Shown: positions 6,026 to 6,196 of the stretch, in pieces
Position numbering within the stretch: the first letter of the stretch is position 1
How the letters are laid out: each line of letters starts with the position of its first letter
NCBI RefSeq assembly: GCF_003334765.1
Contig: NZ_QOWT01000041.1
Length of the DNA: 30,887 bases
Reading direction: 5' to 3' (one strand)
Origin: Escherichia coli
Lineage (GTDB): Bacteria > Pseudomonadota > Gammaproteobacteria > Enterobacterales > Enterobacteriaceae
Translations under genes and position numbers: made by a program
The notes under the pieces: generated by a model
What the model saw: the letters and a program-made list of their open reading frames with translations, nothing else
What the model was told of the DNA's origin: nothing
Databases searched by the model: none

Positions 6026-6042
6026 AGCAGAAATCATGCCAT
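6026..6042 (-). promoter_or_regulatory. Candidate sigma54 (-24/-12) promoter of zraSR
   Basis: Minus strand TGGCATGATTTCTGCT has GG-N10-GC spacing and lies about 30 bp upstream of the zraS ATG; ZraR is itself a sigma54 activator. Confidence 0.55.
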
Positions 6043-6092
6043 CTTTTATCAGCGCTTACCCTGCGCTGTAACACAAAGGCTTAAGTTTCAAT

Positions 6093-6138
6093 GAGTAAAA
6101 ATGACTCGCTACCCGCAGCAGGCGAGTCATTTTTACTC
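6093..6138. promoter_or_regulatory. Perfect 17-bp inverted repeat; probable ZraR enhancer (UAS) shared by the divergent zraP and zraSR promoters
   Basis: GAGTAAAAATGACTCGC (6093..6109), 12-bp spacer, GCGAGTCATTTTTACTC (6122..6138); centred between the two candidate sigma54 promoters. Confidence 0.6.
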
Positions 6139-6180
6139 GTTTATCATGCCAGATTACCCGTCATATCAGCGTTTCATCGT

Positions 6181-6196
6181 TGGCACGGAAGATGCA
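6181..6196 (+). promoter_or_regulatory. Sigma54 (-24/-12) promoter of zraP
   Basis: TGGCACGGAAGATGCA with GG-N10-GC spacing, about 36 bp upstream of the zraP ATG, which has a GGAGG Shine-Dalgarno at 6221..6225. Confidence 0.7.

Follow-up and report, generated by a model that had tools for sequence, protein, structure and literature searches.

Between the divergently transcribed genes zraP and zraS of Escherichia coli lies a short control region in which two outward-facing sigma-54 promoters flank a long and perfect inverted repeat. This arrangement raises the question of whether the repeat acts as one long palindrome, as the target of a nucleoid protein, as an RNA element or as a pair of separate sites from which the activator ZraR could serve both promoters. 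We addressed this question in a stretch of 30,887 nucleotides, referred to below as the window, by bringing together sequence statistics, a comparison of orthologous loci and published binding and expression data.

The whole window, which runs from purH to tufB, matches the K-12 record. A segment of 401 bases around the feature shows 100% identity to E. coli K-12 MG1655 and is present as a single copy in 5,421 of 5,426 complete E. coli genomes. The region is the already characterized zraP/zraSR control region of E. coli K-12, and in this respect it is known and ordinary. Its intergenic spacer measures 237 bp, with the divergent start codons of zraS and zraP at either end. According to the RefSeq annotation of the identical K-12 record, zraP (6232..6657, plus strand) encodes a periplasmic CpxP-like chaperone that acts as an accessory repressor and is the main output gene; the Pfam domain PF13801 was found on ZraP homologues. 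On the minus strand the annotation of the same record places zraS (4597..5994, with its ATG at 5994), which encodes the sensor histidine kinase, and zraR (3275..4600), which by annotation and domain content encodes the sigma-54 activator (enhancer-binding protein) for the two sites described below. The Pfam domains of ZraR are Response_reg, Sigma54_activat, AAA_lid_14 and the Fis-type HTH_8, a GAFTGA motif was seen in its translation, and the protein matches the PDB entry 1OJL ('ZraR') with an E value of 2.7e-177. The three-component ZraPSR gene set, consisting of a CpxP-like periplasmic protein, a histidine kinase and a GAFTGA-bearing sigma-54 activator in adjacent positions, is present. The initial annotation, made from the letters of the window, had named these genes and assigned them to the zinc- and lead-responsive Zra architecture, and both assignments are borne out by the K-12 identity, the annotation and published data. 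Leonhartsberger et al. (2001) reportedly described the E. coli zraP-zraSR (hydHG) intergenic region, which also has entries in RegulonDB/EcoCyc. The region studied here is this locus and does not differ from it in sequence, sigma-54 promoters, ZraR-bound repeat, induction by zinc or lead, or autoregulation.

For the comparative analysis, a ZraP alignment was built and 42 orthologous loci were then retrieved from the genera Escherichia, Salmonella, Citrobacter, Klebsiella, Kluyvera, Kosakonia, Phytobacter and Trabulsiella. The alignment of the spacer holds 42 sequences, namely the window and 41 of the retrieved loci; the remaining locus (L011) was left out because it did not match the anchoring pattern. 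Conservation in this alignment is restricted to the zraSR promoter, the two arms of the repeat, the zraP promoter, the ribosome-binding site and a weaker block on the zraSR side.

The zraP promoter (TGGCACGGAAGATGCA, 6181..6196, plus strand) carries its GG at 6182/6183 and its GC at 6194/6195, while the zraSR promoter (TGGCATGATTTCTGCT, 6026..6041, minus strand) has its -24 GG at 6040/6039 and its -12 GC at 6028/6027. The gap from GG to GC is 10 nt in both motifs, and each of them deviates from TGGCAC-N5-TTGCW by one mismatch, which in both cases affects the leading T of TTGC. Transcription of zraP is predicted to start at about 6207, 25 nt before the ATG at 6232, and that of zraS at about 6015, 21 nt before the ATG at 5994; the starts predicted by Bonocora et al. 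(2015) are likewise 25 nt (zraP) and 21 nt (zraS) before the genes (PMC4591121). The sigma-54 consensus by itself is not significant in the window, where six matches with at most one mismatch were found and the expectation is 2.5; a count of six was also reached in 4 of 100 shuffles, so that the promoter calls need further support. This support comes from the position and orientation of the motifs just upstream of zraP and zraS, their near-invariance in the 42 loci and published sigma-54 ChIP data. Both motifs are present in the same orientation in all 42 orthologous loci, including L011, whose zraS motif carries one substitution, and the distance between the two -24 elements ranges from 142 to 155 bp among the 42 aligned sequences. 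The ChIP-seq study of Bonocora et al. (2015) reported the sigma-54 sites OS38 (TTGGCACGGAAGATGCA) for zraP and OS39 (ATGGCATGATTTCTGCT) for zraS, and lists both promoters as 'P' (predicted in EcoCyc, 2015) and not as 'C' (confirmed) (PMC4591121). The strings and coordinates of these two sites map exactly, letter for letter, onto positions 6180-6196 and 6042-6026 of the window. In vitro, genomic SELEX with the RpoN holoenzyme yielded a peak inside the zraP/zraSR spacer (PMC8743547). In Salmonella LT2, sigma-54 binds the orthologous motifs in ChIP-chip, and a promiscuous activator induced zraP 16-fold and hydHG 3.7-fold (PMC3844500); the zraP promoter of the window has the same sequence as the one bound by sigma-54 in that strain. 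The two outward-facing GG-N10-GC promoters proposed in the initial annotation had thus been placed at the right coordinates, and both are published in vivo sigma-54 sites. Further sigma-54 motifs with one mismatch are located upstream of hupA and within rpoB; the published ChIP-seq tables do not list them, and we regard them as chance matches.

The inverted repeat between these promoters consists of a left arm (GAGTAAAAATGACTCGC, 6093-6109) and a right arm (GCGAGTCATTTTTACTC, 6122-6138) that are perfectly complementary to each other over 17 bp and are separated by a variable spacer of 12 nt (TACCCGCAGCAG, 6110..6121), the sequence of which is not conserved. With spacers of 3 to 30 nt allowed, it is the longest perfect inverted repeat of the window. 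The longest arms in 40 dinucleotide-preserving shuffles reached only 9 to 12 nt, and the analytic chance expectation for arms of at least 17 nt is about 5e-5. The single-strand fold of the repeat has an energy of -18.8 kcal/mol (z = -8.3 relative to shuffles), a value that restates the complementarity of the arms.

The position of ZraR on this repeat can be read from published binding data. Genomic SELEX with purified ZraR identified the zraP/zraSR spacer as its single high-affinity target, with 81 of 86 clones (PMC8249747), and the strongest ZraR ChIP-exo peak of the genome (peak_9, U00096.3 4201786-4201818, S/N 72.97) comes from the same region (PMC7657598, supplement 2). By means of the gene coordinates in that supplement (window position = 4207920 - coordinate), peak_9 converts to 6102-6134, within the palindrome. 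The peak is 33 bp wide and does not resolve the two arms. The proposal that the palindrome is a ZraR binding site is upheld by the SELEX target and by the strongest ChIP-exo peak falling inside the repeat; protection of a different sequence by ZraR, which had been named as an observation that would speak against this proposal, is not what this peak shows. Both operons depend on ZraR. Deletion of zraR in the presence of 1 mM ZnCl2 lowered zraP by 12.7 log2 and zraS by 3.2 log2 in RNA-seq, while zraS was unchanged (-0.02 log2) in the deletion strain in the absence of zinc (PMC7657598). Positive autoregulation of zraSR, which had been deduced from the geometry of the region, is in this way a measured effect, and the ZraR independence of zraS without zinc implies that a basal promoter must exist.

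We next describe the ZraR sites of the repeat at the level of sequence. A weight matrix was derived from the 41 other aligned sequences, with the window omitted, and both strands of the 30.9 kb were scanned. Exactly two matches above 8 bits were obtained in the whole window, site L (TGAGTAAAAATGACTCG, 6092..6108, plus strand, centre 6100), which corresponds to the left arm at 6093-6109, and site R (CGAGTAAAAATGACTCG, 6123..6139, minus strand, centre 6131), which corresponds to the right arm at 6122-6138. Site L scored 30.2 and site R 32.0 of 32.0 possible bits, and both are overlapped by ChIP-exo peak_9. A ZraR weight-matrix scan had been suggested as a check in the initial annotation, and its outcome is the two repeat arms and nothing else. 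The consensus of the 84 site copies in the alignment reads a-g-C-G-r-G-T-A-A-A-A-A-T-G-A-C-y-C-G-c. Positions G4, G6, T7 to A12, A15, C16 and C18 are invariant in both arms, with T13 and G14 deviating in one or two sites only, and 13 of the 17 site positions are invariant over the eight genera; the core of site L (GTAAAAATGAC) is invariant or nearly so across all of them. The invariant positions mirror each other within the arm about the central A (G4/C18, G6/C16 and T7/A15), and 6 of the 8 mirrored pairs in the consensus CGAGTAAAAATGACTCG are complementary (binomial P ~0.004), with an asymmetric centre. Covariation inside the arm was looked for at positions 5/17 and 3/19 and none was found, so the dyad symmetry rests on the invariant positions alone. 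Judged by these positions, each arm is a 17-bp pseudo-dyad of its own with the form CGrGT-N7-ACyCG (CGrGT-AAAAATG-ACyCG).

One alternative is that the repeat functions as one long palindrome. A single ZraR dimer would then span the 46 bp with a monomer on each arm, or a cruciform or hairpin would be extruded and serve as the signal. The perfect complementarity of the arms in K-12, the folding energy given above and the fact that the arms are always inverted relative to each other are all in line with such a function. If pairing between the arms were under selection, the arms should change together; however, their matching at variable positions did not exceed the permutation control over 40 distinct species pairs and was at chance level, and at position 17 the arms matched at 0.30 compared to an expectation of 0.43. 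The length of the perfect complementary run also varies by lineage, from 9 nt in E. albertii and 11 nt in many Citrobacter and Kluyvera, through 15 to 18 nt in other Escherichia (17 in the window and in strain E69), to 19 or 20 nt in Kosakonia arachidis and S. arizonae. In many genera the run does not extend beyond the 11-bp core or is shorter still, which argues that pairing is not selected, and the lack of co-variation together with the lineage-dependent run length indicates selection on each arm as a copy of the motif. Each arm fits the consensus independently and is internally dyad-symmetric, and the arm centres, at 31 to 33 bp or about 105 angstroms, would be too far apart to be reached by both helix-turn-helix motifs within a single Fis-type dimer, as judged from the domain family. 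A single long palindrome is, in view of this evidence, improbable, and the absence of co-variation between the arms leads us to reject the cruciform. The element is best read as two ZraR dimer sites that form an NtrC-style enhancer. As for the perfect 17-bp repeat with a 12-bp spacer in the initial annotation, its coordinates are exact, but it is better described as two pseudo-dyadic sites, the perfect match being specific to Escherichia; by the sequence comparison, the perfect palindrome looks like a by-product found in that genus.

The two-site reading has to be weighed as well against a primary role of the arms in binding a protein other than ZraR, for instance a nucleoid protein like Fis, with ZraR occupancy being secondary. 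The arms seem to resemble the Fis-type pattern, in which a G and a C at a distance of about 15 bp enclose an A/T-rich centre, and the DNA-binding domain of ZraR is itself Fis-like. This possibility is nevertheless very remote, since purified ZraR selects the spacer in vitro as its single strong target, tagged ZraR peaks on the repeat in ChIP-exo, both flanking operons depend on ZraR, and the arms, with 13 of 17 positions unchanged across eight genera, are conserved far more tightly than a degenerate nucleoid-protein site would require. Fis may be an additional binder but is not needed given the ZraR data. A function at the RNA level, whether in termination, in attenuation or within a small RNA, can practically be discarded, as the strong hairpin potential of the repeat is set against its location between divergent genes and upstream of both predicted starts, so that neither sigma-54 promoter would transcribe it, as well as against the lack of a T-run, of a terminator-like call, of an Rfam match in the spacer and of compensatory changes between the arms, whose failure to co-vary leads to rejection of the RNA reading together with that of the cruciform.

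The spacing of the two ZraR sites is in agreement with an enhancer that serves both promoters. Their centres are 31 bp apart in 26 sequences, 32 bp in 14 and 33 bp in two, corresponding to about three helical turns. Relative to the predicted zraP start the centres are located at -76 (site R) and -107 (site L), and relative to the predicted zraS start at -85 (site L) and -116 (site R). As in known enhancers of this type, the sites thus lie about 70 to 150 bp upstream of sigma-54 promoters and share one face of the helix. Overall, the region comes close to two-fold symmetry. The distance from the centre of the left site to the zraS -24 GG is 58.5 to 60.5 bp, and the distance from the centre of the right site to the zraP GG is 61.5 to 63.5 bp in seven genera compared to 50.5 to 51.5 bp in Escherichia. 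The zraP-side spacer is about one helical turn (~11 bp) shorter in Escherichia, and by parsimony the shortening probably arose in that lineage. A change of nearly one turn fits a face-of-helix constraint on looping. An origin of the Escherichia zraP-side spacer by partial duplication of the zraS-promoter flank was considered as well and was dropped because of its marginal support (30 of 2000 shuffles).

Taken together, the region very probably combines a shared enhancer with twin promoters and belongs to the ZraPSR system for envelope stress and zinc. In the mechanism that we propose, sigma-54 RNA polymerase would wait in closed complexes on the two divergent -24/-12 promoters, directed rightward into zraP and leftward into zraSR. 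Between these, the two inverted 17-bp pseudo-dyads with centres 31 bp apart would each take up a dimer of the Fis-type helix-turn-helix domains of ZraR. ZraS would sense periplasmic zinc, lead or envelope stress and phosphorylate ZraR, and the two DNA-bound dimers could then nucleate the active AAA+ ring of ZraR. This ring would loop to either promoter and open the complex through ATP hydrolysis, resulting in a strong induction of zraP and a weaker positive autoregulation of zraSR. The assignment of one dimer to each arm and the nucleation of a ring on two sites draw on two observations from related proteins, namely that pairs of D-domains bind upstream activating sites in the activator family of ZraR (PMC7175178) and that two enhancer sites are sufficient for the assembly of NtrC oligomers (PMC2831303). 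A purely symmetric dimer model does not explain the centre of the site. The AAAAATG centre is asymmetric and its orientation is invariant in 84 of 84 sites, with the A-run on the promoter-proximal half.

Several features of the region are not part of this scheme. A 23-bp block on the zraSR side (TTACCCTG...AACACAAAG, 6056..6078), located at about -41 to -63 from the predicted zraS start, is partly conserved in the footprint of the 42 sequences. Neither the IHF consensus nor the ZraR weight matrix matched it, the sigma-70 promoter scan gave no hit there, and no counterpart was found on the zraP side among the 42 aligned sequences. An IHF site between enhancer and promoter is common at sigma-54 promoters but not obligatory. 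The IHF consensus WATCAANNNNTTR was not found in 5995-6231 with up to one mismatch, and looping over the 50 to 60 bp may therefore be unassisted or may proceed via something unrecognized. A scan for sigma-70 promoters and terminators across 5850-6750 returned nothing, including the basal zraS promoter. The second-strongest ZraR ChIP-exo peak (S/N 34) converts to 6222-6247, over the ribosome-binding site and start codon of zraP, and contains no ZraR motif; it may represent a looped contact with RNA polymerase. We tentatively suggest, as a rather unlikely possibility, that the block at 6056-6078 is the site of a second factor or an architectural element which accounts for the unequal responses of the two promoters or for ZraR-independent basal expression of zraSR, which a promoter wholly dependent on an activator could not supply, and that the one-turn shortening on the zraP side has similarly retuned the sharing of the ring.

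The closest analogue of this region outside the zra locus is probably the pair of NtrC sites at glnAp2. There, the NtrC enhancer precedes a sigma-54 promoter and consists of two dyad-symmetric sites with a separation of about three helical turns. The two systems have in common two dyadic sites of about 17 bp, a regulator with receiver, AAA+ and HTH_8 domains, oligomerization driven by phosphorylation and looping to a -24/-12 promoter. In contrast to NtrC at glnAp2, which recognizes sites of the TGCACC-N5-GGTGCA type, ZraR has sites of the form CGrGT-AAAAATG-ACyCG with an invariant and oriented A-tract at the centre, these are nearer to the promoters (proximal centre at about -76 to -85), and one enhancer serves two divergent promoters.

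Similarities extend to other divergent sigma-54 units such as norR-norVW, in which the activator and its target genes also diverge from a spacer that bears the enhancer (PMC2831303, PMC8249747). None of the three sites of NorR is dispensable, and the protein is already in place as an oligomer when it is regulated (PMC2831303). The zra region differs from norR-norVW in that both of its divergent promoters are sigma-54 dependent and that it has two sites instead of the three of NorR. With CpxP-CpxAR it shares a CpxP-family accessory gene (zraP, PF13801) that is divergent from, and induced by, its own two-component system. CpxR is an activator of the OmpR family that acts with sigma-70 on direct repeats of the form GTAAA-N5-GTAAA, whereas ZraR is an AAA+ sigma-54 activator that acts on inverted pseudo-dyads. 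A CpxR box (GTAAA-N5-GTAAA) inside the arms of the repeat was considered separately; upon inspection, its second half-site was absent.

The cross-genus consensus, the three-turn spacing, the independence of the arms and the one-turn change in Escherichia are incremental refinements and do not constitute new biology. The region serves as a positive control, since the genes, both promoters and the activator site were correctly read from raw sequence. The zra promoter region is already in use as a zinc and lead biosensor promoter, and a 2016 review on Salmonella entered the ZraR enhancer consensus as 'NK'. For the family, the comparative refinement is modestly useful in that it helps with the annotation of ZraR sites in other Enterobacteriaceae.

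From the right ZraR site to the zraP promoter (6140-6180), the spacer was approximately 11 bp, or one helical turn, shorter in Escherichia than in seven other genera represented among the orthologous zraP/zraSR loci fetched for comparison (L007-L043). Two words were common to this spacer and the flank of the zraS promoter, namely ATCATGCCA at 6033-6041 and 6143-6151 as well as TATCAGCGyTT at 6047-6057 and 6164-6174, and a local alignment of the two regions scored only marginally above shuffles (30/2000). On the zraSR side, a block (TTACCCTG...AACACAAAG, 6056-6078) was located between the left ZraR site and the zraSR promoter. 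Its conservation reached 60-80% or more among 42 species, with variable adjoining positions, and the same comparison revealed no equivalent on the zraP side. The block matched neither the IHF consensus nor the ZraR weight matrix, and no match was obtained in the sigma-70 promoter scan.

The second-strongest ZraR ChIP-exo peak (peak_8, S/N 34; PMC7657598) mapped to 6222-6247, covering the start codon and ribosome-binding site of zraP at +16 to +41 of the predicted transcription start. The ZraR motif was absent from this region, and the peak may arise through looping, from contact with RNA polymerase bound at the promoter. A 188-aa ORF starts within the left repeat arm, at an in-frame ATG at position 6091, and extends the N terminus of ZraP (6091-6231). 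In some genome records the palindrome is covered by an annotated "hypothetical protein", and ZraP calls with such an N-terminal extension make up several protein clusters; the extended ORF is probably an annotation artefact.

Two other sigma-54-like motifs with one mismatch each were present on the minus strand, TGGCATTTCCGTCGCA directly upstream of hupA (7682-7697) and TGGCACCGGGCGTGCT within rpoB (23536-23551). The ChIP-seq study of E. coli sigma-54 (PMC4591121) mentions neither motif in its main text, and both are therefore probably chance matches. The purH leader contained a 38-bp near-perfect palindrome (318-355; 19-nt arms, no spacer, one mismatch) ending 33 nt before the purH ATG. Some 40 nt further upstream, at approximately 265-281, was a PurR-box-like sequence, GCGCAAACGTTTTCGT.

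The Rfam families matched at gathering score were the sroH sRNA (17433-17593, plus strand), the TPP riboswitch upstream of thiC (11640-11740, plus strand) and the P26 family between rplL and rpoB, just past the 3' end of the rplL coding sequence (26929-26990, minus strand), all of which are already known in this K-12 region. The convergent purD and zraR genes overlap by 4 nt at the 3' ends of their coding sequences (3275-3278). zraS and zraR also share a 4-nt overlap (4597-4600), a gene arrangement that suggests translational coupling of the two.
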